Numbered from the stretch's first letter, positions 5,038 to 40,503 are shown. The stretch is 64,000 nucleotides of DNA from Bacilli bacterium (GCA_017404385.1 JAFRCK010000014.1:18588-82587); one strand, 5' to 3'. Numbers and translations are program-made. Notes: a model not told the origin generated them from the sequence alone.

Positions 5038-5070
5038 AAGAGGCAAGTATTAATACTTGACCTCTTTTAA
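5038..5070. terminator. Bidirectional hairpin terminator between the DUF378 gene and truA
   Basis: Inverted repeat gaggcaagtat/atacttg(a)cctc with U-runs on both strands. Overlaps the truA stop. Confidence 0.45.
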
Positions 5071-5784
5071 ATATAATCCTTCTGCTGGAGCTGTTTTTGT
5101 TGTTACTTTATTTTCTGTATTTTTAAAATAATAATCTATTTTATTACTTTCTTGTTTTCCTAAAGAAACACTTATTAAATACCCACACATAATTCTAACC
5201 ATATATTTTAAAAAACCATTACCTGTAAAACTAAAAATAATATAATTATCTTTTTTTTCTATAGATGCATTATATATTACTCTATTACAATCTTCTTTTT
5301 TATCTTGATTTGAACAAAATGAAGAAAAATTGTGTCTACCTATAAATCTTTTTATTTCTGTTTTTAACAAATCTACATCTAGTTCTTTACATAATTGATA
5401 TATATAATCTTTCTCTATAGGATTATATTCTCCAACATTAACTTTATAAATATAAGTTTTTTCTTTGACCATATATCTAGCATGAAAATCACTATCAACT
5501 TCTTCAACATCATAAACATAAATAGTATCAGGTACTAAGCTATTAATAGCCCTTTTTAGCTTATATGGAGTAATATTAACTTCTATGTCTACGTGTCCAA
5601 CCTGCATATAAGCTGATACTCCTTTATCTGTTCTTCCAGAAGAAGATAACTTTGTAGTTTTTCCATTATTAATATGTTTTAAAGCATTCTCCATAATACC
5701 CTGAATTGTATTTTCTGAATGTTTTTGTTTTTGATATCCATCAAACTTTGAACCATCATAACTAAATGTTATTTTGTATCTCAC
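5050..5784 (-). CDS. truA: tRNA pseudouridine(38-40) synthase TruA
   Basis: MRYKITFSYDGSKFDGYQKQ...SSGRTDKGVSA is the canonical TruA N-terminus and catalytic Asp region. Confidence 0.85.
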   Translation of the reverse strand: MRYKITFSYDGSKFDGYQKQKHSENTIQGIMENALKHINNGKTTKLSSSGRTDKGVSAYMQVGHVDIEVNITPYKLKRAINSLVPDTIYVYDVEEVDSDFHARYMVKEKTYIYKVNVGEYNPIEKDYIYQLCKELDVDLLKTEIKRFIGRHNFSSFCSNQDKKEDCNRVIYNASIEKKDNYIIFSFTGNGFLKYMVRIMCGYLISVSLGKQESNKIDYYFKNTENKVTTKTAPAEGLYLKEVKY

Positions 5785-5788
5785 ACTA

Positions 5789-6469
5789 TCACCTTATTTC
5801 CCTATATATAGTCTTAATTAATTCATTTATTGAATCTACTTCATCCACATTAATTCCTTTATCTTTAATCTTTTTTATAAAAGTAACAATACTAGGAATT
5901 CTTATATTATTCTCTTTTATTTTATCATAATTATTATATACTTTATATTTATCACCATAATATAATATTTTACCATCATCTATTACAATTAATTCATCTA
6001 TAAATTCATATATATCGTCTATATTAGAACTAACTATAATTATAGTTTTATTAAAAAACTTTTTTAACTTTATAAAAAGTTTTAAAATTTTTACTTTATT
6101 AATTGTATCAAAAGAATCAAGCATTTCATCAAATATAATTATATCTGGATTACATAATAACACTGATGCGATTAATACTTTAGACAATTCACTTTCGCTT
6201 ATTTCATATACACTTTTATTTAAAATATTAATATCTATATCAAGCATCTTTATTATTTCTTCTTTTCTTGCTTCTAATTCTTTTAATCTATATTTATATT
6301 TTTTAACATAATATTCAATTTGTTCTTCTACTATATTCTTTTTTATAATATCATAATTAATAATACCAACTTTTCTTCCTTCTCCAAAACCATTTACAAA
6401 TGTTGTTTTACCGCTACCACTATTTCCACATACACCAATTATTTTTTTCTCATTATTATCTATTTGCAT
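5789..6469 (-). CDS. ABC transporter ATP-binding protein, EcfA2-like (short, degenerate)
   Basis: Walker A GNSGSGKTT. Position downstream of a second ABC ATPase and upstream of truA matches the ecfA-ecfA' context. Confidence 0.55.
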   Translation of the reverse strand: MQIDNNEKKIIGVCGNSGSGKTTFVNGFGEGRKVGIINYDIIKKNIVEEQIEYYVKKYKYRLKELEARKEEIIKMLDIDINILNKSVYEISESELSKVLIASVLLCNPDIIIFDEMLDSFDTINKVKILKLFIKLKKFFNKTIIIVSSNIDDIYEFIDELIVIDDGKILYYGDKYKVYNNYDKIKENNIRIPSIVTFIKKIKDKGINVDEVDSINELIKTIYREIR

Positions 6470-7248
6470 AATTCACCTATTATATCATCCATATTATCAT
6501 ATCTTTTATCTAGTAATTCATACATAATTAGTTTATCAGAAACTTCTATTTCCCATGGTAGCTTAATATTAATATCTTCATTAGTAATTAATTCATCATA
6601 GTTTCCATCAAAGAATACTTTTTTATTATTTATATAAATAATTCTATCTGATAAAGCTAATTCTTTAACATCATTGGTAGTAGAAACAATTGTAATATCT
6701 TTTTGTTTAGATATTTTTTTTATATAATTTAACAATTCATATCTTTTATCAAAATCTAATTTTGAAAAAGCATTATCTAAAAATATAATTTTAGATTCTT
6801 TTAATATAGCTTTTATTAAAGCTACAATTTGATTTTCAGCATATGAAAGTTTTTGAGGAGAATAATTTTCTAGATATAATAAATTAAACTCATCTAACAT
6901 TTTTTTTACTTTATTAATATCAAAAGAACTAACACTCTTTCTATCTTGTAGTATTTCACTCAAAACAGTTTTAGAAAAAAACTCATTATAAGAAGTAATA
7001 AAAGCGCTTTTTTTTGTTATTTCATCAACATTAAATTTATTTACCTGTATACCATCTATTTTTATATTGTTATCTGAAATTAAAGAGCCACTTAGTAATC
7101 TTAATAATGTTGTTTTGCCTACACCATTTTCACCTATAATTGAAACATAACTTCCTTTTTCAATATCTATAGTAATATCTTTAAAAAGGACTTTATTAGA
7201 AGTACTATAATTAATGTTGTGTGCTTCAATTATATTCATACTACTCAC
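6460..7248 (-). CDS. ABC transporter ATP-binding protein, EcfA1-like
   Basis: Walker A GENGVGKTT, ABC signature LSYAENQ, Walker B IIFLDNAFSKLD. Confidence 0.6.
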   Translation of the reverse strand: MSSMNIIEAHNINYSTSNKVLFKDITIDIEKGSYVSIIGENGVGKTTLLRLLSGSLISDNNIKIDGIQVNKFNVDEITKKSAFITSYNEFFSKTVLSEILQDRKSVSSFDINKVKKMLDEFNLLYLENYSPQKLSYAENQIVALIKAILKESKIIFLDNAFSKLDFDKRYELLNYIKKISKQKDITIVSTTNDVKELALSDRIIYINNKKVFFDGNYDELITNEDINIKLPWEIEVSDKLIMYELLDKRYDNMDDIIGELCK

Positions 7249-7277
7249 CTCTAAACAAGTTTATATTATACTTTATT

Positions 7278-7314
7278 ATTCAAAAAAAAGAAATTACTTT
7301 TTAGTAATTTCTTA
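7278..7314 (-). terminator. Rho-independent terminator after the DUF1292-like gene
   Basis: 11-bp stem aagaaattact/agtaatttctt with loop tttt, then an 8-U run on the minus strand. Confidence 0.55.
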
Positions 7315-7563
7315 AATTCCTTCTTGCTTAAGTCTAATTCTTTCATCAAATAATGGAGATAGTTTTCTTAATAATTCAGGATCCTCTACATCTGTTAAAA
7401 CTAATTTTCCATTTTTTATTTCTTGAAAAACTATTTTAATATCATTTTCATCTTCAACATTTAATATTAAATCATATGTATCATATTCAAATAATATATC
7501 TTCTAAAACAAAATATTGTTTACCATTTTTTAAAGTAACTAACTCATATTCTAATTTATCCAT
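7312..7563 (-). CDS. Small acidic protein, DUF1292-like
   Basis: 83 aa, acidic, with a pattern (ELVTLKNGKQYFVLEDILFEYDTYDLIL) reminiscent of the YrzB/DUF1292 family. Confidence 0.35.
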   Translation of the reverse strand: MDKLEYELVTLKNGKQYFVLEDILFEYDTYDLILNVEDENDIKIVFQEIKNGKLVLTDVEDPELLRKLSPLFDERIRLKQEGI

Positions 7564-7574
7564 ATTATTACCTC

Positions 7575-8420
7575 CTACATTAATGATTTTAGGTAAGGAA
7601 ATACATGTCCTTCCATAACATCTTCTGATTCATATATAACGCTAATTACATCTTTTCTTGTTTCATGAGATACAACTTCGTTATCATATTCTTCATTAAA
7701 TAAATCTATATTATTAGGTGTAACTTCTGGTTCTATATTAGTATTATAATCAAAATTATTAATTTCAGGTTCTATATTATTTTCAAAAGTTGGTTCGTTT
7801 AACTCAATTTCATCATTATATTCTTCATCAAATTTTGGTAATTCAAAGCTTTGAGTTTCTTCACTTACTTCTTTTGGAGTTTCCTCTTCAACTTTTTCAC
7901 CAATTTCTTTTAGAACACTATTAAGAGATTCTTTTCTTTTATTATATTCTTGTTCAAGTAATTCATTCATTTTTTCTTTTTCTTCTTCTAATGCTTTAGT
8001 TAAAGTTTCATTACCCTCACAAGCTCTAATAGCATCTTCTATAGAAGAAATTTTTGAATTACATTTAGCAGAAATATCTTTTAATGAATCAATATAATTA
8101 ACTTGTTTACCTTGTTCTTCTAATTTAATACTTTCTATTTTTTCTTTTCTATCTAAAATATCTTGTTCTTTCTTTGAAAACTCTTCAAAAGCTTCTTCTT
8201 TTTCTTTTGTTAATTGTTCCTTAAATTCATTTAATCTATCTTCAAAATCTTTTTCAGTTTGTTCTTTTTGATTACTTAATAATTCTAAATCTGAATCTAA
8301 ACCTGATATTACATTCCCAAGTTTATCAATTACTTCATTATCTTTTTCTAAATATACTTTTAATTCTTCAGGAACAGTTGATTCAAGAACTTCTTCTTCG
8401 ATATTTATTTTTTCTTCCAT
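7575..8420 (-). CDS. Highly acidic coiled-coil protein of unknown function
   Basis: 281 aa, E/K-rich heptad-like segments, no TM. Separated by 11 nt from the downstream gene, suggesting an operon. Confidence 0.4.
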   Translation of the reverse strand: MEEKINIEEEVLESTVPEELKVYLEKDNEVIDKLGNVISGLDSDLELLSNQKEQTEKDFEDRLNEFKEQLTKEKEEAFEEFSKKEQDILDRKEKIESIKLEEQGKQVNYIDSLKDISAKCNSKISSIEDAIRACEGNETLTKALEEEKEKMNELLEQEYNKRKESLNSVLKEIGEKVEEETPKEVSEETQSFELPKFDEEYNDEIELNEPTFENNIEPEINNFDYNTNIEPEVTPNNIDLFNEEYDNEVVSHETRKDVISVIYESEDVMEGHVFPYLKSLM

Positions 8421-8507
8421 AATAAAACACCTCTTCTTATTCTATATATAAAGTATATCAATTATAATAATTTATGTCAATAAAAAGAGTGGAATTAATT
8501 TCCACTA

Positions 8508-9515
8508 TTAAATATCCATGTCTTTTCTATTTACTTCAAATACATATACTTCTTCTGCCATTATAATAAATCTGCTTTGATCATTAGAAACCTTATCATA
8601 AATAATTGGTCTATCTAAATTATTTCTAACATCTAATAATTCTTTAAAGCTTGTTGTTTTAATAACATTCTTTTTATCATCTAATTTTGTTGATGAAGAT
8701 TCAGTAATATAAGTGTCATATTCTTTTAATAATTTAGTAATATATCTATCATATTTGCTTTCTTTTTTAATCCTATTTCTAACTAAATATACTAGTATTA
8801 TTACTGAAACTAAAGCTAAAGACATAAATAATACTGATAAAACAAACATTAATTTATTGATAAACGATTCTTTTGTTTCTCCCATATATGATGATGTTTC
8901 ATTTATATCATTACTTTTATTAATAACTATCATTTGTTTTGATAAAGGTATAGTCATAGCCATTACTTTACTTTGACTAATTTCCTTATCTATACTCTTA
9001 TAATCTACTATATAATCAACAACTAAATTACAATCAGCATTTATACCATAATTTGTTTTAAATTCGTTAGTTAATTTATTATATTTTCCATAATCTATTT
9101 TAAGTTCATCACTTAAATTAATATCTTTAGAATCTTTATAATCATTATTTAATAATTCTTCTTGCTTTGTGTATATAACTTTGTTATTATCATCAGAATC
9201 AGTTATTTTTATATTAGCTACTATTTTTCTGTTAATATTATATTTTTTATCTGTTTCATAATTAATGTTATATTTATAGTTCACTGTTATATTATTGATT
9301 ATTGAAGAAATATATTGCATTCCTTCACCCAAGAATTTTTCACTATAATAATTGTTTTGATTTAAATAAACTTTATAATTAGTACTTCCTGATTCTTTAT
9401 AATTAATTTCACTTATTGTTGTTATTGTATTTGATTTATTATAAAAGAACAAACTAACTAAAGTTAAAACCGCTGTTATAGCAACTAAAATTATTTCACT
9501 TCTATTCTTTTTCAT
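8508..9515 (-). CDS. Bitopic/two-TM membrane protein of unknown function (TM, ~190-aa exposed domain, TM, ~100-aa tail)
   Basis: Hydrophobic segments IILVAITAVLTLVSLFF and LMFVLSVLFMSLALVSVIILVYLV. Lies 11 nt downstream of the signal peptidase fusion gene. Confidence 0.4.
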   Translation of the reverse strand: MKKNRSEIILVAITAVLTLVSLFFYNKSNTITTISEINYKESGSTNYKVYLNQNNYYSEKFLGEGMQYISSIINNITVNYKYNINYETDKKYNINRKIVANIKITDSDDNNKVIYTKQEELLNNDYKDSKDINLSDELKIDYGKYNKLTNEFKTNYGINADCNLVVDYIVDYKSIDKEISQSKVMAMTIPLSKQMIVINKSNDINETSSYMGETKESFINKLMFVLSVLFMSLALVSVIILVYLVRNRIKKESKYDRYITKLLKEYDTYITESSSTKLDDKKNVIKTTSFKELLDVRNNLDRPIIYDKVSNDQSRFIIMAEEVYVFEVNRKDMDI

Positions 9516-9526
9516 TTTATCACCCT

Positions 9527-10654
9527 TTACGAAAATAATTCATTTAACCAAATACTTGGTAACCCTATACTCTTTATTTTTATTTTTACAATTCCTAATA
9601 CATTTTTACCATCAATTGCCCCTTCATCTACTCTTTCATTATTGTCACCTTTTGTGATGTAAAAATCTCTTTCATCTCTTTTAACTATCTTATTTATTCT
9701 ATGAGCAATTAATTTCTTTTCATATTTAAATACTATTACGTCTCCCTCTTTTAACTTTTTTCTTTCTTTAGAATCTAATTTTTTTAAAATTACTACATCA
9801 CCTTTACTTAAGTAATTCTTCATAGAATTAGATCCTATTACTAGAGACTGATATTTAAAGAAACCAGAATTCAATCCAACTAATAACAGTAAAATAAAAA
9901 CTACTATTGTAAATATAATATTTCTTTTTCTCTTATTTTTTGGTTTATCTTGTTCTTTATTCTTATAACTAAATACTACTACACTTAATACTGTAGGTAG
10001 CACTATTAATAATACTGAATTAACATATGGTCCTAAATCAGGAATAATTGGAATTATGAATACATATATTTCAGTAAGTATTCTATACGCTATTGAATTA
10101 TAAAAGTCGCTCTTAATATCATATATTGTCATAAGTACATTTTTAATCAAGCTTCCCATTATTATTAATCCAATAAACTCATATAGATCATCTTTAATTG
10201 ATAAATCATAGGTATTAAAAGCTAATACCACATCTAATGTCACAAATATTAAATAACTTAAAATTATAACTATTTTATTATTATTAGATTTTCTAATAAA
10301 CTGATATCTTAATACTTCACATACTATTATTATTGTTATTGCAGGTATTATATTTTTAACTAAATTAGTAAACGACCAACTATATATTGTTTTCGCATAA
10401 CCAATAAATAATCCTAATAAGTATATCAGTATAAAATATAACATTATATAAAAAAGTGTTTTCTTAAAAATAGGTTTCTCATTTGGAGTTTTATCTATAT
10501 CTATACCTGTTAAGAAATAGATAAGAACACCTATTCCTAAAAAGAATACTAAGTATCTATATTTATCAAATAGATAAGGTACGAAAAAATTAGAAATAAT
10601 AACTAGTAAAACTAATATTTCTATTGCTAATATTTTTTTCACACTACTCTTCAT
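9527..10654 (-). CDS. Polytopic membrane domain (~250 aa, 6-7 TM) fused to a C-terminal SipW-type (S26B) signal peptidase I domain
   Basis: C-terminal ~120 aa contain the Ser box VIGSNSMKNYLSKGDVVILK and His box LIAHRINKI plus GDNN, typical of SipW/archaeal-type SPase I. The N-terminal half is multi-pass hydrophobic. Confidence 0.6.
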   Translation of the reverse strand: MKSSVKKILAIEILVLLVIISNFFVPYLFDKYRYLVFFLGIGVLIYFLTGIDIDKTPNEKPIFKKTLFYIMLYFILIYLLGLFIGYAKTIYSWSFTNLVKNIIPAITIIIVCEVLRYQFIRKSNNNKIVIILSYLIFVTLDVVLAFNTYDLSIKDDLYEFIGLIIMGSLIKNVLMTIYDIKSDFYNSIAYRILTEIYVFIIPIIPDLGPYVNSVLLIVLPTVLSVVVFSYKNKEQDKPKNKRKRNIIFTIVVFILLLLVGLNSGFFKYQSLVIGSNSMKNYLSKGDVVILKKLDSKERKKLKEGDVIVFKYEKKLIAHRINKIVKRDERDFYITKGDNNERVDEGAIDGKNVLGIVKIKIKSIGLPSIWLNELFS

Positions 10655-10741
10655 TTTTTCACCTACCTACTCAAGCATAAACAAAAAACTTAAGTTGCCC
10701 TAAGTATTTTGTTTTTTTAAAAACTATTTTGTAATTGATTA

Positions 10742-11359
10742 TTAACTACCGCTTGCTTCGTCTTGAATATAATCAATATAAGAATCTAAACCAGTAATTG
10801 TAACATCATTTGTTGGCACATTTGTTGCACTAGCATTATATGTAATAGTTAACTTTAAACTTTTTGTTGCTCCTGCAGCTAATTTGTCTCCATCAGCAAG
10901 AGCTGTTCCATTAGCATAAGTTAGTGTATAAGTTAAATTATTTTTAACTAAAGTACAATCTGCTTCACTTGGAACTGGTGAACCAGTACAAGTAGCTGAT
11001 GAAACATTTGCTAAATGAACTCCGCTAGTATTAATTTTAGCATTAATAGTACCTTCATTAATTACATCAAATGTATAAGATACTGAGTCCCCTGGTGCAC
11101 TTAAAGTAGCTGTTAAGCCACTTAAAGTAGTAGAACTAGAATCTAATACTAACTCTTCTCCTGTTTTTACTTGTGCATATCCAGTTTTTGTTGGAGCAGA
11201 TAAATTAGTAAAATGGATATTCCATGTTGTATTTTTACTAAGCACCTTTGCATTTGAATTAATATTCAATCTTTGAGTTAATGCTGCATATGCAATTGTC
11301 ATTGATACAATACCAACAATCAATAATGCCATTAAAATATTCTTTGTTTTTTCTCCCAT
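10742..11359 (-). CDS. TasA/camelysin-like (Peptidase_M73-like) secreted protein with SipW-type signal peptide
   Basis: N-terminal charged/hydrophobic signal MGEKTKNILMALLIVGIVSMTIAYAAL. Mature region LSAPGDSVSYTFDVINEGTINAKI parallels the TasA/CalY motif LKPGDxxxKxFxxxNxGSLxIK. S/T/A/G/N-rich and beta-rich. Immediately upstream of the SipW-like gene. Confidence 0.45.
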   Translation of the reverse strand: MGEKTKNILMALLIVGIVSMTIAYAALTQRLNINSNAKVLSKNTTWNIHFTNLSAPTKTGYAQVKTGEELVLDSSSTTLSGLTATLSAPGDSVSYTFDVINEGTINAKINTSGVHLANVSSATCTGSPVPSEADCTLVKNNLTYTLTYANGTALADGDKLAAGATKSLKLTITYNASATNVPTNDVTITGLDSYIDYIQDEASGS

Positions 11360-11524
11360 ATTATATTTTCCTTTCTGTAAGAATTATAAACCTCTATCAT
11401 TATACTTCTTCTATAATAAATTATAGCAAATATTTTTTATTTGTAAATACTATTTTTTTTAATTTACATTTTTTATTAACATTTACTTAATCATTGAATA
11501 ATATATTATAGTTTGAGGTAAAAC

Positions 11525-12304
11525 ATGATTGATTATATATTAAATCTAAATCCTATTATTCAAGCCCTTTTAGCCACATTATTTACATATAGTATTACTG
11601 CATTAGGTGCATCAATAGTCTTCTTTTTTAAAAAAGTAAACAAGACATTCATGGATGGTACATTAGGATTTGCTGCTGGTATTATGATTGCCGCTTCATT
11701 TTTTTCATTATTACTACCCGCTATTAATATGTGTGAACAGTTAAATATTAAAGAATGGATAGTTTTATTATGTGGATTTATTGGTGGTGGTTTATTAATA
11801 TTTATTGGTGATAAAGTATATAACATTTTTAGTAAAAATAATAATAAACGAGTAATATTATTAATAAGTTCTATTACACTTCATAATATTCCTGAAGGAA
11901 TGGCAATTGGAGTTGCATTTGGTTCTGTTATATATGGAATAGATGGAGCTAGTTTAGTTGCAGCCTGGACATTAGCTCTAGGTATTGGTTTACAAAATTT
12001 CCCAGAAGGAACAGCAATTAGTATGCCTCTTAGAAGAGATGGCTACAGTCTAAAAAAGGCATTTTTCTTAGGACAACTAAGTGGTATAGTTGAACCAATT
12101 TCTGGAATTATAGGCGCATTATTAGTTATGAAAGTAAGAATATTGTTACCTATATTATTATCATTTGCTGCAGGTGCTATGATATATGTTGTAGTTCAAG
12201 AATTAATACCTGAAAGTCAAACTAATAAGAATAAATCTTTAATGGCATTATTTACATTAATTGGTTTTTCATTAATGATGGTTTTAGATATTACTTTAGG
12301 ATAA
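11525..12304 (+). CDS. ZIP family metal (zinc) transporter, ZupT/GufA-like
   Basis: 8-TM protein with HNIPEGMAIG and LQNFPEGTAI metal-binding motifs typical of ZIP/ZupT. Confidence 0.7.
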   Translation: MIDYILNLNPIIQALLATLFTYSITALGASIVFFFKKVNKTFMDGTLGFAAGIMIAASFFSLLLPAINMCEQLNIKEWIVLLCGFIGGGLLIFIGDKVYNIFSKNNNKRVILLISSITLHNIPEGMAIGVAFGSVIYGIDGASLVAAWTLALGIGLQNFPEGTAISMPLRRDGYSLKKAFFLGQLSGIVEPISGIIGALLVMKVRILLPILLSFAAGAMIYVVVQELIPESQTNKNKSLMALFTLIGFSLMMVLDITLG

Positions 12305-12306
12305 AA

Positions 12307-12338
12307 ATAACAGAAGATTAATCTTCTGTTATTTTTAT
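12307..12338. terminator. Bidirectional terminator between the ZIP transporter gene and a convergent lipoprotein gene
   Basis: Inverted repeat acagaagat/atcttctgt followed by atttttatt. Overlaps the stop of the minus-strand lipoprotein gene. Confidence 0.5.
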
Positions 12339-12845
12339 TGATTTAAAGAAATTTTGTAATACATCATTCTTAAATACATCAGCAACTGCAAATTTCTTAT
12401 CATATTTGATTGTATTTATAGATATAAACAATTCTAATGTTTCTTTTTCTTTTTTTAAATCTTTTATATCTATTACCAAATATAGATTTTCGTCACTATT
12501 TCCATATGTATAAGCAGCGTAATCACCAAATTTATATTCTTTATAGTTTTTATCGTCTTGCCTATCTTTTTTTACTGCTTCACATGTCTTTGTAGAACTT
12601 TTTGTATAATACATATCAAAATACAAATTTTGTTTTTCATTTGAAAACTCCATTTCTTCATACTTTCCACCTTTAACATTTTTTTCAAATTTAAAATCAT
12701 CATCCTTTGAATATTCAAAAGTAGTTGTTAACTTTAATTTAGAATCAGTATATGTGATTTTTTCATTTTTAGAACTAGATCCACAAGCAGTTAATATTAC
12801 TAAACATAAAACAAATGTTAAACTAACTAATAATTTATTTTTCAT
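12318..12845 (-). CDS. Lipoprotein of unknown function
   Basis: MKNKLLVSLTFVLCLVILTACGSSS has a lipobox. Confidence 0.5.
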   Translation of the reverse strand: MKNKLLVSLTFVLCLVILTACGSSSKNEKITYTDSKLKLTTTFEYSKDDDFKFEKNVKGGKYEEMEFSNEKQNLYFDMYYTKSSTKTCEAVKKDRQDDKNYKEYKFGDYAAYTYGNSDENLYLVIDIKDLKKEKETLELFISINTIKYDKKFAVADVFKNDVLQNFFKSIKITED

Positions 12846-12853
12846 ATTTCCTC

Positions 12854-13975
12854 CTAAATTGATTTCTTTTTCTTTTCTTCAAGTTCAAGTCTTTCTAAGT
12901 TTCCAGCTGAATTACTTATTAAAGAACTACTAGTTATATTTTTAGGCTTTAAATCTCTCATCTTTTCTATAGTCATTATTGTTTTATCTACTGTATAACT
13001 TTCATTTATTTTTGAATTCAATAGCCTTGACATAATCATAAATGCCTCAGATAACATATTATTATCCTGAACTGAATTCATTTTATTATTTATATTAAAA
13101 CTAAATATTTCTAAAATATTATCTGATATAAAAATAGGTGCAGTCAAAATTTTATTAGCCCTTAATAAATTAAAACTTTCATTATTAGATGTCATTAATT
13201 CCCTATCTTTATATTTTGATTCTATTTCTTCGGCTGTTTTTTTAACTAACATATATTCAGATTTTCTTAATTCTAAATAAGATAACACAAAAAATATTAA
13301 TGAAGTAAACTTTTCTTTTATTTCTTCAATAGATTTATTATTTGAAAACTGCTCTATTAAATTAAAAACACTCTTTTTTTGCATTTCAGATACTTTTAAA
13401 TTATCTAACCTAGTACCTTTAACACTCATTTCTGCAATTTCATCTAACACTTCACTTATTTCACTAACTATTCCTGATATTTCAGACATTAATTCATCAC
13501 TAGTCTTATTAATAGAATTCATTAAATAAATATTCTTATTCATTTTAAATTGAATACTAGTTATTTTTTTTTGTAAATTTATTCTTTGTGTATATAAATT
13601 GTAATTTCTATTTAGTAATTCATTTCTTCTATTAGTAGTATCAGTATATGGAAATGCTGCTATTGCTTTTTCATTTTCTATAAATTCTTTTTCTAAATCA
13701 ATTATTCTTTTTAAAAATATCTCTAATTCTCTTTTACTTGTTTCTTCGCTTATACTCTCAATGTTGATGTCTTTATTATTAGATTCCATTTCTCTTACTA
13801 TATCTCTATATCTTCCAATTAAAATTTCTAATCTAACATACTTTTCTTCCAATTTTTCAGGTATAATTTTTCTAATAATCTTAGAAAACTCTTTTACTGA
13901 AGCAACATCTAAGACATCATACCCTGATATAGTCGATGATAAACCACCTAATACTTCTGTACTTAGTAACCCCAT
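12854..13975 (-). CDS. Hypothetical coiled-coil protein
   Basis: 373-aa ORF with no recognisable motif. Tightly coupled (9 nt) to the downstream lipoprotein gene. Confidence 0.35.
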   Translation of the reverse strand: MGLLSTEVLGGLSSTISGYDVLDVASVKEFSKIIRKIIPEKLEEKYVRLEILIGRYRDIVREMESNNKDINIESISEETSKRELEIFLKRIIDLEKEFIENEKAIAAFPYTDTTNRRNELLNRNYNLYTQRINLQKKITSIQFKMNKNIYLMNSINKTSDELMSEISGIVSEISEVLDEIAEMSVKGTRLDNLKVSEMQKKSVFNLIEQFSNNKSIEEIKEKFTSLIFFVLSYLELRKSEYMLVKKTAEEIESKYKDRELMTSNNESFNLLRANKILTAPIFISDNILEIFSFNINNKMNSVQDNNMLSEAFMIMSRLLNSKINESYTVDKTIMTIEKMRDLKPKNITSSSLISNSAGNLERLELEEKKKKSI

Positions 13976-14043
13976 TCTATCACCTCTATTTTAATTATAT
14001 AATACAGGTCTTTTTTTTTCAATAAAAAAGAGATGCTCTTTTG

Positions 14044-14385
14044 TTATACTAATTCTAGTATAACAACTAAAGCATCGTCTCCTCTTCTATTTTCTTTCTT
14101 AAGAATTCTAGTATATCCACCATTTCTTTCTTTATAACGAGGTGCAAGTTCATCAAAAATCTTTTTAACAACTTCACTATCATTATGTAAGAAAGCATAT
14201 GCTTTTCTTCTTGAAACTAAATCACCTTTTTTACCATAAGTAATCATCTTATCTACAAATTTTCTAGTTTCTTTTGCTCTATCTTCTGTAGTTTCGATTT
14301 TTTCATTCATGATAACGGCTTTAGTTAGATTAGCAAGCATACTTCTTCTGTGTTTAGAATCTCTTCCTAATTTTCTATATGCCAT
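14044..14385 (-). CDS. rplQ: 50S ribosomal protein L17
   Basis: [20 protein letters not shown]... is the canonical L17 sequence. Last gene of the alpha operon. Confidence 0.92.
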
Positions 14386-14393
14386 AAATCCTC

Positions 14394-15344
14394 CTAATCA
14401 TCATTCTTGAAAGATAGTCCTAAAGATTTAACTTTATCTAGAACTTCTTTTAATGATTTCTTTCCTAAGTTTCTGATCTTCATCATATCACTTTCTTTTC
14501 TATTAACAAGATCTTGCATAGTATTAATACCTGATCTCTTTAAGCAGTTATATGCTCTTACTGAGAATTCCATGTCATCAATTGAAGTTTCTAAAGCTTT
14601 AACTTTAGGATCTTCTTCTTTTTCAGCCATAATTCCAGAAATATCAGCGATTGAATTTAAATCAGTTAAAATATTTAAATGTTCAATTAAAATTCTACTT
14701 GCTAAAGCAATTGCTTCTTCAGCTTTCATTGATCCATCTGTCCAAATTTCCATAATTAATTTATCATAATTAGTTGATTGACCAACACGTGCTTCTTCAA
14801 CTTCATAATTTACTCTTTCAATTGGAGAATAATTTGAATCAATAGCAATTGTTCCAACTTTAGCTCTCTTTAATAATTTTTTATTGTTTTCTGCTCTAAC
14901 ATATCCTCTTCCATTAGATACAGTTAATTCCATATTTATTTTTCCACCTTTAACAACAGTACAAATAAATTGATCTTTATTAACTATTTCTACGTCACTA
15001 GGACAATCAATATCAGCAGCAGTAACAACACCTTCTTTATCAACGTTTAAAGTTAATACTTGTTCTTCTTCTGAATGATTTTTAATAACGATATTCTTTA
15101 AATTAAGTACTATAGTAGTAACATCTTCATATATTCCATCCATAGTTTGGAATTCATGTTCTACACCTTCAATATAAACTGAACTAATAGCACTTCCTGG
15201 TAAACTAGATAATAATACTCTTCTTAATCCGTTACCTAATGTTAAACCAAAACCTTTTTCTAGTGGTTCTAGTTCAAATTTTCCATAGTTACTTGTTTCA
15301 TCATATTCAGTAACTTTATATTCTGGTTTTTCAAATTTTATCAT
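14394..15344 (-). CDS. rpoA: DNA-directed RNA polymerase subunit alpha
   Basis: [16 protein letters not shown]...[20 protein letters not shown] is the RpoA N-terminal domain. The C-terminal domain carries the KSLKEV-type helix-hairpin-helix region. Confidence 0.92.
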
Positions 15345-28517: not shown

Positions 28518-28548
28518 AAAAAAAAATAGAAGGATTCCCTTCTATTTT
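28518..28548 (-). terminator. Rho-independent terminator of the WG-repeat paralog A gene, overlapping its stop codon
   Basis: Stem atagaagg/ccttctat with loop attc, followed by an 8-U run on the minus strand. Confidence 0.6.
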
Positions 28549-30299
28549 ATTGAATATAATAAATCACCTGAATAATTATAATAACTATTATATATGAACA
28601 AATAATTTTGGGCTATTTTTATATCATTACTCTTAACTTCTATAGGTAATTCTTCTTTAGTAGATAGATTTAATAACACTTTTTTATCATCTTTTATAAC
28701 CAAAATAAATGGATAATCATGTGTTATATATTCTATACTCTTATATTTAGGTTCAATTATTACTTGATTTTTATTATTGATTAAACCTATCTCATCTTTT
28801 TCATTCTTAATTACAAATAACTCTTGCTTTAAATTTTCCTGAATATTTTTGAATAAATCCTTATCAATAAACTCAACTTTATTATATTTCAAAGGTACTA
28901 TTTCTCTTCCATCTTTATCTATAATTCCATAATTATTATCTTTTGCAACTATCGCATACCCATATTCATTAAAGTCTTCTATATAATCATATAACTGATC
29001 ATTTATTAAATTACCTGTTGAATTAATATAATTATATTTTTTATCACTTATTTCTACAGCCAATTTTTCATTTTTAAATTCTTTTGTTACCGGAATATAC
29101 TCTGAAAATGAACCTTTTAAATCGTTGTAGGTATATATATTATATTTATCTTCATTAGTATCAAAACTATGTGTTTTTTCTAGTAATAATCCTGAACCAT
29201 ATGTATATTCATTATTCTCACTTGTATTTATGACAGTTTTATCCTCTATATTAATATAATCTATATTCATGTCATCTTTAACGCATATTGCTATATTAGA
29301 ATTTACATCATCTACTCTTACTCTTTTATATTTATCTGTTTTATACTTAATATCATCATCTTTAATTATAAAATAAGTACTATTATCTTCTTCTTTATCT
29401 GCTTTTATATAAAATACATTATTATTTAAAACATTTATATCATTTAAAGTATATCCATATAATTCTTTACCAGAATATACATTAACTATTGTTGATGATT
29501 TATTAACCTTTACTTTAGCGTATCTATTTTCTTTATTTGTTTCACTTGTTACTTCAGAAACTTCTACATCTATCTTTTTATCATCTACTTCATCTACTTT
29601 AAAAGTATAAATCTCTTTTCCATCTGTATTTAATATTCCCATTGTTTCATCTTTTTTAAATAAAAATAATTTATTATTATATGATATCTCATCATATTCA
29701 AATCTTGTTATTTCAGATAGTTTATTATCTAAAACTGCATATTTTAAACCACTATTAGTTATTTTAGAAGCTATATAGTAATCATCAAATAAAGATATTG
29801 AATAATAGACACCAAAAGGACTATGAAGTGCTCCTTTTCCATCTAATATTCCATATAGATTATTATCATTTTTTACTATAGCTAATCCTTTATGATATTC
29901 AGTTCCATAAGAATATTTTGCTTTAACAACAATTGTACCTTTATCATCTATATAACCTACTTTTTTATTTTCTTCTATCCTTATTAAATTAGATGTATTA
30001 GCTTTACTATTATTTATAAAAATATACATAAACAAAATAGAAACAAATGCAAAAGATATTATTGGAAATATTATAGATGCTTTTTTAAATGAGACTTTAC
30101 TATTTTTAGCTGGTATATCCTTTATTTTATCATCTAATATTACTATATTATTATCAGTAATAATTGGCTCATTTGATTTTGTTAAAGGTGGAATATCCTT
30201 AATTCTATCATCTAAAATAATAATATTATTAGAAGGGTCTTCAAATGGTAAACTAGAAAAAGAAGCATCATTAATTTCTTGATTGTTTAACTCATTCAT
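28542..30299 (-). CDS. Type II membrane protein with cytoplasmic tandem IILDDRIKDIP motif and extracellular WG-like (KWG/PF14903-like) repeats; paralog A
   Basis: About 75-aa N-terminal region with two copies of (I/V)ILDD(R/K)IKDIP, then TM ASIIFPIISFAFVSILFMYIFI, then repeats such as KVGYIDDKGTIVVKAKYSYGTEYHKGLAIVKNDNNLYGILDGKG. Strong paralogy with 40530..42284. Confidence 0.5.
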   Translation of the reverse strand: MNELNNQEINDASFSSLPFEDPSNNIIILDDRIKDIPPLTKSNEPIITDNNIVILDDKIKDIPAKNSKVSFKKASIIFPIISFAFVSILFMYIFINNSKANTSNLIRIEENKKVGYIDDKGTIVVKAKYSYGTEYHKGLAIVKNDNNLYGILDGKGALHSPFGVYYSISLFDDYYIASKITNSGLKYAVLDNKLSEITRFEYDEISYNNKLFLFKKDETMGILNTDGKEIYTFKVDEVDDKKIDVEVSEVTSETNKENRYAKVKVNKSSTIVNVYSGKELYGYTLNDINVLNNNVFYIKADKEEDNSTYFIIKDDDIKYKTDKYKRVRVDDVNSNIAICVKDDMNIDYINIEDKTVINTSENNEYTYGSGLLLEKTHSFDTNEDKYNIYTYNDLKGSFSEYIPVTKEFKNEKLAVEISDKKYNYINSTGNLINDQLYDYIEDFNEYGYAIVAKDNNYGIIDKDGREIVPLKYNKVEFIDKDLFKNIQENLKQELFVIKNEKDEIGLINNKNQVIIEPKYKSIEYITHDYPFILVIKDDKKVLLNLSTKEELPIEVKSNDIKIAQNYLFIYNSYYNYSGDLLYSIK

Positions 30300-30331
30300 T
30301 ATATCCCTCCTATTCTATATAATTTTACCAC

Positions 30332-30380
30332 AAAAAAAAGAGAAAGAAAAGAAGCATAATTATTTATGCTTCTATTTTTT
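30332..30380 (-). terminator. Rho-independent terminator after the 1563-aa adhesin gene
   Basis: 10-bp stem agaagcataa/ttatgcttct (30350..30373) followed by a U-rich tract on the minus strand. Confidence 0.55.
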
Positions 30381-30386
30381 CATAGA

Positions 30387-33300
30387 TTATTTATTTTTAA
30401 AAATCTGTGGTTTATAACGTATAATTATCAATACGCCTAGAATAGCAATTATTCCTATGAATATTAAGCCATATTTAATCTTTTCCATACCAGTTGATAT
30501 AGTTACTATTAACTCAGCACTTGCGCTTGGTTTCTTAACTATTTTTTCAGTTTTTGGTTTATTCGCAATAATTGAATTTCCAACTACTGAACCATCTTCA
30601 CTGACATAGAATACAGCTACATTTAATTCTTTTTTAGGTAATTCCATTCCATTTGGTGCTTTTGTTTCAATTATTATATATTGACCTTCTTCTAAGTAGT
30701 AAACTGTAGCACTACCATTCTTAGTCTTAATTACCTTATTTGTACTATTCTTATCTACCTTATAGAAGATTTTATCTCCACTTACTTCTTCAGTAACTGT
30801 TAAATCTTCATATTTCTTATTTTGATTTAATTTTTGAAGTTTATATTCTCCTCCATCAATTAAATTATTATAATCATCATATTTATAGAAAGTAAATGGT
30901 GTTGGTTTATTAACAAGTTCTTTTAATGTATCAACTATTTCACTTTCTTTTTCTATAGTTACCATTATGAATCTATCTTCTTCTTTTTCAGGTAAACTAT
31001 AACCTTTTGGAGCTTTTACTTCTTCTATAATATAACAATGACCATAATCTAAATATTGAATTAATATTTCACCTGCTTTTATCTCAACCTTTTCATTATT
31101 TTGATTAACACTATTATCAAAATTTGCCCATGTATCAACATATTCTGAATAAGTAAGTGAAGTATCAATATCGCTACATTTATCATTTTCTTTATCAGTA
31201 CATGTAATTACTTTATCCGTGTCCCTTATTTCTCTATTATCATATACTCCATCTCGTATAGTTTTTAATTTTAGAAGTTCTTTTGGTTGAGCCATTGGAG
31301 ATAAATTCTTATCACAAGTTGTACCTTCATAAATTCTAAATTCTGCTCCCTCTAATAAATTTCCAGAATCATCATATTTTCTTATTAATAATGAAGTTGG
31401 TTTATTAGGAACATCTATTTCATCAACTTGTACTGTTTCAGTAGATACAGTAAATGAGCTTTCAGCATTTCTTCCTTTTGGTAATCTATATCCTTTTGGA
31501 GCTACTGTCTCTAGTAAAACATAATTATATCCACCTTGTAGATATCTAAATACTAATTTACCATGATATGGATGTAAATCAGTAACATTATCAGTTTCTT
31601 TTTCTATATTAAGTATTGCTCTATATACTTCAACATTAGGATCTTCTTCATCACCAGTTATAATTCCTCTTTGATTAAATTTAATTAGTGTCATTCCAGC
31701 AGCTTGTCTTTCAGCAGCATTAACATAATCCCCAGGGTGACATTCTTGACCTTCTGGACATCTATATACTTCAAATGTAGTTGTTTCATCATCTATTAAA
31801 TAACCATATTTGCTATCTCTCTTTTCAAAAGTAACTCTAGATGGTTTATCTAATATTTCTACTGTTGTTGATGGTTTTGGTTGATCTTGATCATCACAAC
31901 ATGATAAATCTATTTCTCTAGTTCTTTCTTCTTCAGTTTCTGGTAATATAAATACTGATTTACCAGTAACAGCAACTTCTTCTATATAGTATTTTCTTCC
32001 TCTACATAGATGAGTTAAATGTATATGTCCTCCACAAGTATGTAATTCTTGTGTTATAGTTAAATCACTTATTAATGAACTATCTGTGCCTTCAGGAATA
32101 TATCTATATTCTGAATAACTTTCTTCAGTCTTACAAGTTCCTACATCTCCAACTTTAGCAAAATCAACATATACTTTTTCATTATTTTGTCCTCTATAAT
32201 AAACCTTGAATGTTATTCCATCAAACGCACTTATTTCTTCTTCATTTTCAAATTTTACTTCTTCATTTGGAATTACATTTCCATAGAAATCTTTCTTAGT
32301 AAATTCTACTTCAGTTGGTCTATTATCCAATGTTTGAGTAGCAACAGTTGTTATTTCACATACATTATTACCTAGTTCATCTTTACCTGTAGATTGACTT
32401 GTTGAACATTTATCAATAGTAAATGAATAACTATTTGTGTTGTTACCATACTTAGGTGAATAGAATCCATAACATATATTACTTGATGGACTTGTACATG
32501 TATCTTCACAACAACAATCGTTTTCCTTAATTGTATATTTACCTACTGGTAAATGATATACATATATTTTTCTTGAACTATTTAAGTTCAATGTTGTAGT
32601 TGGAGTTCCAGTTACTCCATCTATATTATTTCCAGCATATTCATATACGCCATCAGATGTTTTGATAACACTTACTGCATTACCATTACTATCATATATT
32701 GTAAATGGTATTTTCTTTAATTCTTCTGTTGACATTGTTTTCCAAATGTCATCTAAACCATTTTCTTCACTAACTGTTTTAGTAAATTCAAATTCTGTTT
32801 TATAGTTTTTATATTTTTCAGCATCATTAAATGATTTTCTTGATTTACTAGAATCATTAACAATAAATGTCTTAGTTGTTTCTTCACCAAATGTATGGTA
32901 ATCAAGTGGTTTAGTTTCTGTTACTTTATAAGTTTCAGCAGGAAGTTTTACTATACATACTTCACCTATATTTACGCCATTAGATTCATCTGTTGTACTC
33001 GAAACTAATTTAGATGCTTCTGATTTATTTGTTGTTTCACCATCATATATATAGCACCCTTTATTACCATTTTCATTTTCTTTTTCTGATTTTACTTTTA
33101 TATATTGAGTAGTATCATTTTCACCAACATAAGAAGCAATAAATTCAGCTCCTCCTTTAGGAGTTTCACCATCTTCTAATACCTTATAAAAATTCATTAC
33201 TAATGGCGTATTAATTAATTTATTACAATCTGATGATGATGTACATGTTTTTCCTTTTATACTAGTTTGTGGTTTAATGCCTGTTATTTGTCCATTTTCA

Positions 33301-35078: not shown

Positions 35079-35104
35079 AATAAACTCCTTTCTTTATTTA
35101 TATA

Positions 35105-35140
35105 TCTAGAAATATACTATTCAAATAGTATATTTCTAGA
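35105..35140. repeat. 36-bp perfect palindrome (17-bp arms, 2-nt centre) between the two giant genes, overlapping the stop of the upstream gene
   Basis: tctagaaatatactatt-ca-aatagtatatttctaga. Seen directly. Not followed by a U-run on the minus strand. Confidence 0.7.
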
Positions 35141-38100
35141 GTTTACTTTAATAACAGGTCTTACTTCTTTAAGTGCAGAAGCAATATCTGATTGAATACC
35201 TGATGTACTAACGTACGAAGCTTTATTGTATACTGAAGTCCCAGCTGTAGGTACTCCATACATATCATAAACTGGTCTTGTATCATCAGAACTTTCTAAC
35301 CAATATGGTTGAGATCCTGTAAGCCATTCTATATTACTTAATGAACTATTTGTTATTCTTGTATATTCTTCTATTGTTAATAACCTAACTCTTGATTTAA
35401 CAAAATCTCCTGATTGACAAGTTCCTGAAATACTACCACCATATGATGCTATATCTAGTCCAGAAGCATCATTACATACATAATTATCTTTTAATATTCC
35501 ATAATCTAATGCTAAACCATAAATATTATTATTTAAATTACTATTTATATTTGAATCAGCCCATTTATAAACATCATTTGTCGAATTGGTATGTCCGCTT
35601 TTCATTGAAATAGATCCAGAATCAGCAAGTAATGTTATATCTTGAGTTCCATCATCCATATTTTCTGTATTGATAACATGCCATCCTAATCCTGCATAAT
35701 CAATACTATCTCCTATGACATAAGTATTTGAATTATTATATTCACTTTCAGTTGGTTTTTCATTTGGTTTATAAGGGGCCATATCAGCAATTGAAACAGT
35801 ATTTATAAAAGTTTTACCATCTTCTCTAGCTGGCATAAATAATACTATTTGTAAATACTTAGTCTCTCCTGGTTTAATTAATTCAGAATCTAATGTTGTA
35901 GCATATGCCTTTCCATTAACCATTGTCCAACCTTTATTTAATTCTTCGTTTGGATCAAATACTAAACCATCTGGAATACTTTCCTCAAGTTCTGTTACAT
36001 AACCTGGTGTTACTGAATTATTTGTAATTGATATTCCATAATATACTTTAGCTGTTGCTAATTGACTATTTCTAATATCTAACAATACTTTAGATAAATT
36101 ATTATAATCCTTAACAGCTACACTTCCTTTATAGAATAATTCTGTTTTAGTAATATACTTCTTTATATCAAATCCAAAACTATACCTTGGAATTAATCCC
36201 ATATCATAGTTTTCTAATTTTGTTATTTCTCTAGTTAATCTTATACCAAATGGATCATCTGGTGTTCTTTTATTACTAATTCTTGCTACAGTATCAGATA
36301 CTTTATAAGCATCTGAATCTATAGTTTCATTATCTGATGCATATCTTAAAGTTAGATCATATTGTTTTCCATCATAGTTTAAGTCTACATAGTATTTGCC
36401 GACATCCAAATTTTTAAATTCATATCTTCCATCTTTATTAGTAGTAGATTCAGCTACTTTAGTATGTTCTTCTCCATCTACTTTATATAAAGTAACGGGT
36501 ACATTTGATACATACTTATCGCCTTCATCTTGTACTCCATTTTCATTTATATCATTAAATACTTTTCCTGAAATACTTCTTCCTACTACATTAATAGCTA
36601 TCTTATTTGATGTATTCTTACTATATTGAGCATTTCCTCCAATAAAATCATTAATATATTTATCTGAATAATTATTGTTAGTCGGTTTAATTATTACCTC
36701 AATTGCCTCAGTACCTGTATGAGGTTGCATTGATATTTCAGCTACTCTTATAGCTCTTACTGATTTATAATTTTCAGTAATATCACTACACTCTATCCAT
36801 TCATTTTTAGAACTATCTATTTCTTTAGATAACTCTTCATATTTTTGAGTCGAACAATATATTTTTGCTCCTCCTAATGAAGCAGGTACATTTAATTTAA
36901 CTTCATATGTTCCATTAATAACAGAACCATTAGTATCACCATTAGATGGTAATATATCTATTATTTCATAGTCATTTACTATTCTTGTTGTATTATTAAA
37001 TACTTTTAATAAGTAACTAAATTCTGTATTCTTTTCAACTTTAGAACCAGCTGCTCCAACTGTTTGTTCAACAAATACATTTTCAGAGCCATTTGCATAT
37101 ATAGTAAATTCTTTAATTGATTCACCAAATAAACTATTATCAACTTCCTTATTTACATTTAAAGCTCTCATTTGGCTTATAACTACTACTGGTGTAGCAG
37201 GTTCAGAAATCATACTGCTTAATTTTGTTTTAAATTGAATACCACTATTTTCAACATTAGGTTTAGTATATGGTAATTGATATTCTAGATATGTATTATT
37301 ACCCATCTTGTATCTATTAACCAAATACTTATCAGTATCTGCATCTGGAATAAATTCTAACTCTCCAGGTAATTCTACAGCAATACCTACATATTTAACA
37401 AACCAAACATCATCTGCTCCTACTTTTTCATTTTCATCTGTAATAATTGGTTTAATATTATATATAATTGTTTCATTTTCACTTGTATTATATGTTGTTT
37501 TCATTTTTCCATCTGATGTTTTATTCAACACAGAAATTTCTTGATCTGAAGTATAATTAGCTATTCTAATTGAATCAGCATAATCAACATGATTTACATT
37601 TATTACTGAATTGCCATATATTTCTGGTAAAGTATAATTGTTAGGATCAACTACACTTGTTCCATTTGGATAATAATAATGTAATACTGTATCATAATCT
37701 GATGATGATATAACTGTTGCTGCTTGATAAACTCTTGTTATATCAGCAACATTTCTAACTCTTAATTTCACTTTAACATCTATTGTTACATTATCAGGCA
37801 AATTAGTACCTTGATTTGTTTGTATAATTATTTTGGTTATAGGTTTTTCTTTTCCTTGCTCATCTTTAGCATCATTAATCTTTGTATATTCTTCTTCATC
37901 CGTACTTATATTTTTAACACATGGGCTACCATATATATTTAATATTTGATCATTAGATAAATTAGAAAGATTTAAATTAGAGCAAGCAGTTGAAATTGCA
38001 TTTTTATCTTCTTCATTTAATCTTGAGTCTACAGCTATTACTGAATAACTTGAATTATTATAATCACCTGTTAAGAATTTAATTTCAAAATCATCGGCGC

Positions 38101-39679: not shown

Positions 39680-39812
39680 TTATAATACTATTTTTTTCAT
39701 TTTTTTTCAAGAAAAATAACAAAAAAAAGGAAAAAAGGAGAACTCCATAATTAAGCATTTACTTTTTTTATTTGTTGTGTTAAAATTTGATTGAATAATA
39801 GGGAGATAGATT

Positions 39813-40502: not shown

Positions 40503-40503
40503 A

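Follow-up and report, generated by a model that had tools for sequence, protein, structure and literature searches.

What does a bacterium do with a signal peptidase that carries an additional polytopic domain in the membrane, encoded between a secreted beta-sandwich protein and a two-helix membrane protein? The question is raised by three genes, here called A, B and C, on a 64,000-nucleotide (nt) stretch of DNA from an uncultured Bacilli bacterium (GCA_017404385.1 JAFRCK010000014.1:18588-82587; the whole stretch is referred to below as the window, and positions are counted from its first letter). A preliminary description had read them as a variant matrix-fibre or pilus-like assembly operon, made up of a TasA/camelysin-like protein, a novel processing enzyme in which a SipW-type peptidase is fused to an extra membrane domain, and a protein standing in for TapA. 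The three open reading frames (ORFs) lie on the minus strand where that description had placed them, and the motifs it quoted are present (LSAPGDSVSYTFDVINEGTINAKI in A; GSNSM, AHRI, GDNN and IVCEVLRYQF in B):

10742..11359, minus strand: gene A, candidate fibre subunit, 205 amino acids (aa); NCBI MBQ3474765.1, annotated 'hypothetical'
9527..10654, minus strand: gene B, polytopic fused signal peptidase I, 375 aa; NCBI MBQ3474764.1, annotated 'signal peptidase I'
8508..9515, minus strand: gene C, DUF5305 protein, 335 aa; NCBI MBQ3474763.1, annotated 'hypothetical'

Our analysis indicates that the locus is probably a fibre operon of the TasA superfamily, nearest to the AbpX type, in which A would be exported, cleaved after Ala25 by B and polymerised through its N-terminal strand, with C as an accessory of the peptidase. 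The general idea of an assembly operon is upheld, as a secreted beta-sandwich protein stands beside a signal peptidase of the endoplasmic reticulum (ER)/archaeal type in a three-gene unit. The novelty claimed for the enzyme is not, since the fusion is widespread and polytopic signal peptidases I (SPase I) have been noted in AbpX loci (bioRxiv 10.64898/2026.01.04.697558).

By sequence comparison, the fusion of a SipW/S26B-type catalytic domain to a polytopic domain is genuine. A search for homologues of B recovered 184 proteins, nearly all 373-379 aa long within an overall architecture of 373-393 aa. Scored against 1.84 billion cluster representatives (clusters at 50% identity), a profile of the N-terminal domain matched at least 1,234 clusters at E <= 1e-3, of which 723 reach E <= 1e-10; among the best 150 of these clusters, almost all had the 365-393 aa expected of the fused architecture. 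The fused family includes high-GC sequences and one sequence from a Candidatus Nomurabacteria metagenome-assembled genome (MAG). Two N-terminal domains that seemingly stood alone were checked: one is explained by a gap in the scaffold (L015), the other by the fragmentation of a low-coverage contig (L016). A frameshift or other artefact, which the preliminary description had itself considered, is therefore rejected: the full-length architecture is ubiquitous among the homologues and is found in the 184 proteins and in most of the 1,234 clusters. One 812-aa sequence (P0203) passes from a truncated peptidase domain into one that resembles, by eye, a metallophosphatase or 5'-nucleotidase. Chimeric assembly or gene calling may account for it in place of a true fusion.

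The two halves of B map to the DNA as follows:

9959..10654, minus strand: N-terminal domain of eight transmembrane (TM) helices (aa 1-232), with a CPBP/Rce1-like fold
9530..9943, minus strand: anchor TM helix (aa 238-263) and ER/archaeal-type SPase I catalytic domain (aa 264-375)

Residues 242-362 match NCBIfam TIGR02228 (archaeal/ER-type signal peptidase I, S26B) with 80.8 bits against a cut-off of 51.85 (E 9.7e-23), and the protein also matches Pfam Peptidase_S26; its score against NF046067, the equivalog model of Bacillus subtilis SipW, is 60.7 bits, below the cut-off of 190. The catalytic residues are Ser277 (in GSNSM), His318 (in AHRI, replacing the bacterial Lys) and Asp337/Asp343 (GDNN...D). 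Across 127 aligned, diverse representatives of the family (median identity to B 32%), Ser277-Met278, His318-Arg319, Gly336-Asp337 and Asp343 are all 100% conserved, and because these boxes are invariant B should be an active peptidase of the Ser-His type. Hydropathy and an AlphaFold2 model place a charged, Lys/Arg-rich cytoplasmic linker (KNKEQDKPKNKRKRN) directly before the anchor helix, so the catalytic domain is predicted to face outward. Related Bacilli MAGs (L010, L011) additionally possess ordinary ER-type signal peptidases, 167-213 aa long and not fused, that share 33-34% identity with the catalytic part of B; the fused form would therefore be a specialised paralogue and not the sole SPase type of the lineage.

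The membrane half poses the harder question. Hydropathy and the AlphaFold2 model (predicted local distance difference test score, pLDDT, 84) agree on eight N-terminal helices (3-24, 26-49, 59-84, 95-122, 127-146, 154-181, 184-200 and 208-228); the peptidase anchor brings the total to nine, and a short amphipathic helix lies at the C-terminus. The extra domain is thus as real as had been proposed, although it has eight helices where six or seven had been counted. Sequence models are silent on it: this half has no match in Pfam, NCBIfam or the PDB sequences, the last also when searched with the N-terminal domain profile, and the CPBP model PF02517 matches neither B nor any of 18 N-terminal domains, even at E <= 10. 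The fold, by contrast, is CPBP/Rce1-like. In a fold search of the model the domain superposes on two CPBP-family proteins and shows the eight-helix CPBP fold, as in the CPBP/type II CAAX proteases (Rce1, PDB 4cad; SpdC/LyrA, PDB 6u0o). The next membrane-protein folds matched are APH-1B and TMEM147, both of which were reportedly assigned to the same superfamily as the CPBP proteins by Pei and co-workers in 2011.

Conservation across the 127 representatives centres on a few residues of this domain: Glu113 and Arg116 (99% each), Pro202 and Pro205 (98%), Tyr210 (94%), Asn172 (91%) and Tyr190 (88%), with position 141 acidic in 88%. The Glu113-x-x-Arg116 pair lies on TM4, the helix of CPBP motif 1 (EExxxR, which holds the catalytic Glu), its spacing one residue below the canonical one, and F137-x-x-x-[D/E]141 occupies a motif-2-like position. 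No histidine is conserved within residues 1-235 in the family alignments, so the histidines of CPBP motif 2 (FxxxH) and motif 3 (HxxxN/D) are absent. The membrane half of B accordingly has the CPBP fold but not its canonical active site; a canonical CPBP protease is rejected by the sequence models and the absent His motifs, though the fold is retained.

Gene C is the two-TM protein that had been noticed 11 nt downstream of B. It matches Pfam DUF5305 (PF17231; E 5.2e-14, 52.7 bits against a cut-off of 29) and is laid out as TM helix 6-24, an extracytoplasmic domain of ~200 aa, TM helix 224-242 and a cytoplasmic tail of ~90 aa. A homologue of C lies directly downstream of each B homologue examined. 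The haloarchaeal Tafi loci pair a DUF5305 protein, TafG, with the signal peptidase TafD, which is genetically required for pilin processing (PMC11821415, PMC12337348), and DUF5305 is sometimes fused to SPase I (PMC11821415, PMC12337348; bioRxiv 10.64898/2026.01.04.697558). The AbpX preprint reports the same DUF5305 topology and regards the protein as a putative SPase I accessory subunit (bioRxiv 10.64898/2026.01.04.697558). Since C belongs to this proposed accessory family, it is not the TapA analogue that it had been taken for; it has two TM helices and a cytoplasmic domain, and its gene lies downstream of that for the peptidase. A search with the A-family profile found no TapA-like gene in the window. 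The gene order in B. subtilis is tapA-sipW-tasA, so C does not even occupy TapA's relative position.

The three genes form a cassette well beyond this contig. The order of one to three A-like genes, B and C is kept in 12/12 related loci with usable flanks (L001/L002, L003/L004, L005-L009, L012/L013, L014 and L015, from rumen, deer, sheep, rabbit and other metagenomes, high-GC relatives included), often with two or three A paralogues in tandem. Several loci encode, downstream of C, proteins of 410-1050 aa that begin with an A-like signal peptide, strand and first beta-sandwich (A-profile E 6e-10 to 1e-6) and further carry Laminin_G_3 or Fib_succ_major domains:

L005, 9361..12513: large A-like multi-domain protein
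L003, 10204..11436: large A-like multi-domain protein
L012, 9273..11147: large A-like multi-domain protein
L013, 3840..6398 and 6508..8001: two large A-like multi-domain proteins

From their domain content these are candidate tip, minor or adhesin subunits of a donor-strand fibre. At L001, a 3,459-aa Flg_new protein lies downstream of C. The window itself holds a single A gene; the A-family profile search found no large A-like partner in it, and it has no tip or anchor gene. The Candidatus Nomurabacteria MAG (P0300, candidate phyla radiation) and high-GC metagenome contigs (L014) also encode the fused B with an A-like gene upstream and a DUF5305 gene downstream, and the cassette therefore extends well past Bacillota. 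A divergent cassette occurs on CAZQAO010000009.1 (L009), a contig assigned by binning to 'uncultured Muribaculaceae' (Bacteroidota). Its B is 29% identical and has an A-like gene of 171 aa and a C-like gene for neighbours; either the contig was mis-binned or the cassette was transferred horizontally.

What, then, would this peptidase process? The N-terminal part of A carries two predicted features:

11285..11359, minus strand: predicted signal peptide of A (aa 1-25), from hydropathy; Lys-rich n-region, 17-residue h-region and T-I-A-Y-A before the predicted cleavage site
11225..11284, minus strand: candidate N-terminal donor strand of mature A (aa 26-45, ALTQRLNINSNAKVLSKNTT), with the conserved alternating strand L31-x-I33-x-G35-x-A37-x-V39

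Residues 46-200 form a beta-sandwich core. In the monomer model (overall pLDDT 84.8) there is a helix at 3-26 and a confident sandwich at 47-199, while the candidate donor strand is of low confidence (pLDDT 56-58). Cleavage is predicted at AYA|A after residue 25 from hydropathy, the alignment with AbpX and the conservation of A25, found in 41/43 members of the A-family alignment. The segment that follows is the most conserved of the family, with the pattern A-[L/F]-[T/S]-[Q/T/E]-x-L-x-I-x-G-x-A-x-V; I33 is kept in 43/43 members, L31 in 41/43, and A37 and V39 in 35/43.

The relationship of A to TasA is remote. A shares with TasA/CalY a PGD...N.G.L/I motif and a mature start of the form Ala-[Phe/Leu]-x-[Asp/Gln], yet Peptidase_M73 (PF12389) does not match it at E <= 1. 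Matches to this model below threshold occur in 17/43 family members (best E 3.9e-4), and TIGR04088, the SipW-cognate signal model, matches 2/43, weakly. Aligned by hhalign with a 36-sequence TasA/CalY alignment, the A family reaches a probability of 43.6% over 26 columns, which cover the PGD...N.G motif only; this motif is also typical of the immunoglobulin (Ig)-like repeats DUF11/DUF7507.

The link to AbpX is stronger. Against Pyrodictium abyssi AbpX (sequence from Fig. S1 in the supplement of bioRxiv 10.64898/2026.01.04.697558), hhalign gives the A family a probability of 92.4% (E 5e-7, 141 columns); the TasA family scored against AbpX in the same way, as calibration, reaches 13%. The alignment pairs ...TIAYA|ALTQRLNINSNAKV of A with ...GLTYA|QWSETLSLSATIST, that is, with the cleavage site of AbpX and its donor strand QWSETLSLSATIS defined by cryo-electron microscopy. 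At its start, AYA|ALTQRLNINS stands over TYA|QWSETLSLS (AbpX ...GLTYA|QWSE), and further along it pairs PGDSVSYTFDVINEGTINA with PGAENVNFTLENVGTIPA. Donor-strand pilins give the best full-length matches in each of the two fold searches. Among the PDB entries matched in the first of these are the following:

7pnb, Saci_0406 thread: score 6.8, rank 1
7ueg, AbpA bundling pilin: score 6.5, rank 2
8aur, TasA fibre: score 5.8, rank 11
9p0a, Natrinema Tafi pilin: score 5.6, rank 15

These matches are interspersed with chaperone-usher pilins and generic Ig-like domains.

Several results count against a fibre subunit of the AbpX type and have to be set in the balance. Neither A nor the A-family profile has a significant match among PDB sequences, and Foldseek returns nothing for the A model at E <= 1e-3 (the top entries being FimG, AbpA, TasA, CfaB and Tafi). 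Without the signal peptide, the hhalign probability for A and AbpX falls to ~21% (P ~1e-3, 77 columns); in the controls, the reversed sequence gives 0.1% and 20 shuffles give <= 1.3% save one at 12.4%. The hallmark residues of AbpX are also missing: position 2 of mature A is Leu and not aromatic, and position 4 is Gln and not acidic. Mature A is less acidic as well, with an isoelectric point (pI) of 4.80 and 8.3% Asp+Glu against ~4.0 and ~15% in AbpX. In the family as a whole, position 2 is Leu in 30/43 members, Phe in 12/43 and Tyr in 1/43, 25 members have Gln at position 4, 10 have Thr and 4 have Glu, and the medians are pI 4.5 and 9.2% Asp+Glu. Pairwise BLASTP of A against AbpX gave nothing useful, and neither did a metagenome scan for relatives of AbpX aimed at adjoining 'ten-TM' peptidases. 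Because the AbpX link is the best of those found, weakened by the controls and the absent hallmarks, we place A as a remote member of the TasA superfamily, nearest the AbpX type and outside the TasA/CalY family. The earlier label 'TasA/camelysin-like' is thus upheld in part only, for a remote place in the superfamily, and fails at the level of Peptidase_M73.

Taken together, these features suggest how the three products might work. A would be exported through Sec by its long signal peptide, and the peptidase domain of B, of the ER/archaeal Ser-His type and outside the membrane, would cut it after Ala-Tyr-Ala25. The cut would release the N-terminal amphipathic strand Leu31-x-Ile33-x-Gly35-x-Ala37-x-Val39, which could then enter the beta-sandwich of the next subunit by donor-strand complementation and so drive chaperone-free polymerisation. 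Calcium-bridged strand exchange is doubtful for A, since A is much less acidic than AbpX. C would act as a two-TM accessory subunit of the peptidase. The eight-helix domain, with its CPBP/Rce1 fold and without both catalytic histidines, is most likely a non-proteolytic membrane scaffold, comparable to the His-less CPBP protein SpdC. Such a scaffold might bind the hydrophobic signal peptide, with the buried Glu113/Arg116 site as a possible docking point, and join the peptidase and C into a complex resembling the eukaryotic signal peptidase complex. Of this picture, the order of the genes, their domain identities, the catalytic residues, the folds and the co-occurrence of all three genes come directly from the analysis; the cleavage site, the polymerisation by donor strand and the scaffold role are inferences.

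The scaffold role is open to another reading. The near-invariant Glu113/Arg116, together with Asn172 and an acidic position 141, would suit catalysis as well, and a pure scaffold is less than certain. The eight-helix domain could instead be an active, non-canonical glutamate-type intramembrane protease that makes a second cut, for instance degrading the released signal peptide in the manner of a signal-peptide peptidase, or trimming the precursor within the membrane, so that B would be a two-protease enzyme. The CPBP/Rce1 fold, the position of Glu113-x-x-Arg116 on TM4, the helix of motif 1, and the persistence of buried polar residues across ~30% identity, suggestive of chemistry beyond packing, all favour such an enzyme. 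CPBP catalysis, as in Rce1, nevertheless requires the His residues of motifs 2 and 3, and no His is conserved in this domain; PF02517 matches 0/18 members at E <= 10, the spacing is ExxR and not ExxxR, and His-less CPBP relatives such as SpdC are non-proteolytic. We therefore regard an active protease as unlikely. Equally unlikely is a new His-free catalytic variant of the CPBP fold (Glu113, Arg116, Asp/Glu141, Asn172) working in tandem with the signal peptidase. Such a variant might re-cut or clear the signal peptide in the membrane; it might also control when the donor strand is set free, and so confine polymerisation to the cell surface. A conserved polar site inside the membrane could also belong to a sortase- or transferase-like enzyme that modifies or anchors the N- or C-terminus of its substrate, whether an exosortase/archaeosortase or an LnsB-like N-acylating enzyme; CPBP-fold proteins do act in sorting and lipidation, as myxosortase (PMC11980579) and LnsB (PMC7387801, PMC13559823) illustrate. 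The preliminary description had raised an exosortase-like Cys-Glu-Arg site in IVCEVLRYQF, and this candidate is rejected: Cys112 is not conserved (the commonest residue is Ser, at 23%), and no exosortase or archaeosortase model of Pfam or NCBIfam matches. This rejection is at the level of sequence, as the PDB fold matches of B include no exosortase to compare. A, which ends in ...YIQDEASGS, has no C-terminal TM helix or sorting motif, and N-terminal acylation is incompatible with use of that terminus as a donor strand, leaving sorting or transfer very improbable.

A different doubt concerns A itself, which might be secreted or wall-associated as a monomer, a beta-sandwich protein acting for instance as an adhesin or binding module, with B as a specialised or housekeeping signal peptidase of a reduced genome. 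Fold and sequence tie A only weakly to TasA, AbpX and AbpA, PGD...N.G recurs in DUF11/DUF7507 repeats, and the window lacks a tip or anchor gene, all as a monomer would have it. Against this, the A-like/B/C cassette is strictly conserved, often with its two or three tandem A paralogues; the alternating strand after the cleavage site is strongly conserved yet unstructured in the monomer model; the large multi-domain proteins of related loci reuse the N-terminal module of A; and the best full-length fold matches are donor-strand pilins. A monomer is on these grounds improbable.

The fibre reading can be set against the systems already described. AbpX is a donor-strand-complemented filament of the TasA superfamily with an adjacent signal peptidase in P. 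abyssi (Nat Commun 2025, PMC12518558), and homologues in Bacillota and Chloroflexota were reported in January 2026 (bioRxiv 10.64898/2026.01.04.697558). According to that preprint, the dedicated SPase I of AbpX is 'structurally distinct, possessing ten TM helices', and DUF5305 accessory genes accompany it. Our locus resembles these loci in its mature subunit of ~160-180 aa with a long Sec signal, a ...YA| cleavage site (predicted in A) and an amphipathic N-terminal strand, in the motif PG-x-x-V-x-[FY]-T-[FL]-x-x-x-N-x-G-T-I common to A and AbpX, and in a dedicated, many-TM SPase I of the TIGR02228 type with its DUF5305 gene; extra AbpX-like or larger subunits are likewise common in related loci. 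It differs in the Leu/Gln of A at mature positions 2/4, where AbpX has aromatic/acidic residues, and in the lower acidity of A, in the nine TM helices of B against the ten reported, in its host, an uncultured low-GC lineage of gut Bacilli, and in a window without an anchor, regulator or tip gene; the similarity of A to AbpX is at the profile level only and comes largely from the signal and strand region. We infer that B belongs to the 'ten-TM' SPase class of the preprint, beside which it is set by description only. The locus thus fits the AbpX triad of subunit, polytopic SPase I and DUF5305 protein, a type already described in the January 2026 preprint, and is not a new system. The text of that preprint (bioRxiv 10.64898/2026.01.04.697558) makes no mention of CPBP, CAAX or Rce1, and our literature searches found no report of a CPBP-fold domain linked or covalently fused to a signal peptidase; for this reason, the assignment of the polytopic half to the CPBP fold appears to be the only new element.

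Like the tapA-sipW-tasA operon of B. subtilis, the locus combines a Ser-His signal peptidase of the ER/archaeal type with a beta-sandwich protein as subunit, known or proposed, of matrix fibres. Unlike that operon, it has a subunit that fails Peptidase_M73, a peptidase that carries an extra eight-helix domain and fails the SipW cut-off, a DUF5305 gene in place of any TapA-like gene, and a different gene order. The haloarchaeal Tafi pilins TafA/TafE (PMC11821415, PMC12337348) mostly use Tat signals, and their peptidase TafD, in contrast to B, crosses the membrane with four TM helices and has, in place of an N-terminal eight-helix bundle, an additional extracellular domain at its C-terminus.

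How the cassette may be expressed is suggested by the signals around it. The co-directional ORFs A, B and C (locus tags IJH20_01130-40, proteins MBQ3474763-65) are separated by gaps of 87 nt (A-B) and 11 nt (B-C) in a strongly AT-rich window (~22-31% G+C), and are sited between one promoter-like and one terminator-like site:

11420..11447, minus strand: promoter-like site before gene A; TTTACA, 16-nt spacer and TG-TATAAT, 11/12 matches with an extended -10, a consensus match only
10679..10714, minus strand: AU-rich hairpin followed by U-rich sequence between A and B, a possible partial terminator or attenuator
8488..8506, minus strand: intrinsic-terminator-like hairpin and T-run immediately 3' of the stop codon of C, the putative end of the A-B-C transcription unit
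8480..8452, minus strand: second promoter-like site, after the terminator of C and ahead of the next gene

The promoter-like site has the top score in a scan of 7200..11600 and lies ~60 nt 5' of the ATG of A; two terminator-like sites were found in the scanned region against 0.5 expected. With a promoter-like site 5' of A and a terminator-like hairpin 3' of C, A-B-C looks like a single transcription unit. The 91-nt stretch between A and B folds at -15.5 kcal/mol, which is not significant against shuffled sequence (z = -1.75); the hairpin could reduce read-through and thereby yield the subunit in excess over the peptidase.

Genes D (7575..8420) and E (7312..7563) are rejected as members of the system, since the terminator-like and promoter-like sites separate both from C and no homologues of them lie beside the cassette in other loci. 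D encodes a very acidic, coiled-coil-like protein of 281 aa (pI 4.3, 29% Asp+Glu) without a signal peptide and E an acidic protein of 83 aa, the pair under its own promoter-like site; no family match was found for either. A-B-C sits within a usually tight ribosomal-protein/ECF cluster (7312..14385), with rpoA (14394..15344) and rplQ (14044..14385) on one flank and ECF-type ABC ATPase genes (6460..7248, 5789..6469) and truA (5050..5784) on the other. The apparent insertion of ~6.7 kb comprises a 373-aa protein of no known kind, a 175-aa lipoprotein, a ZIP transporter (11525..12304, opposite strand), A-B-C and the two acidic proteins. Elsewhere in the window, at 28542..42284, lie two adjacent genes for giant surface proteins, of 1563 aa (four SpaA prealbumin-like domains) and 1520 aa (SdrD_B domain), with a gene for a WG-repeat protein of ~585 aa on each side of the pair; the two WG-repeat proteins are paralogues and nearly identical at the N-terminus (...LPFED.SNNIIILDDRIKDIPPL). 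The arrangement has the look of an adhesin locus of its own.

Bacteria and archaea are increasingly seen to share fibres of the TasA superfamily as a scaffold of matrix and biofilm, and the present locus would be an AbpX-type version in uncultured, genome-reduced gut Bacilli of ruminant, rabbit and human-associated metagenomes. Two of the three operon genes are still annotated as hypothetical at NCBI; the cassette of an A-like gene, fused peptidase and DUF5305 gene would predict surface fibres, and candidate adhesin subunits, in many MAGs. The Glu-x-x-Arg pair offers a direct mutational handle on why this class of fibre needs a signal peptidase joined to a CPBP-fold domain. If the eight-helix domain were catalytic after all, B would be a 'pilin maturase' with two active sites, represented by >1,000 protein clusters in Bacillota and at least one Nomurabacteria MAG.

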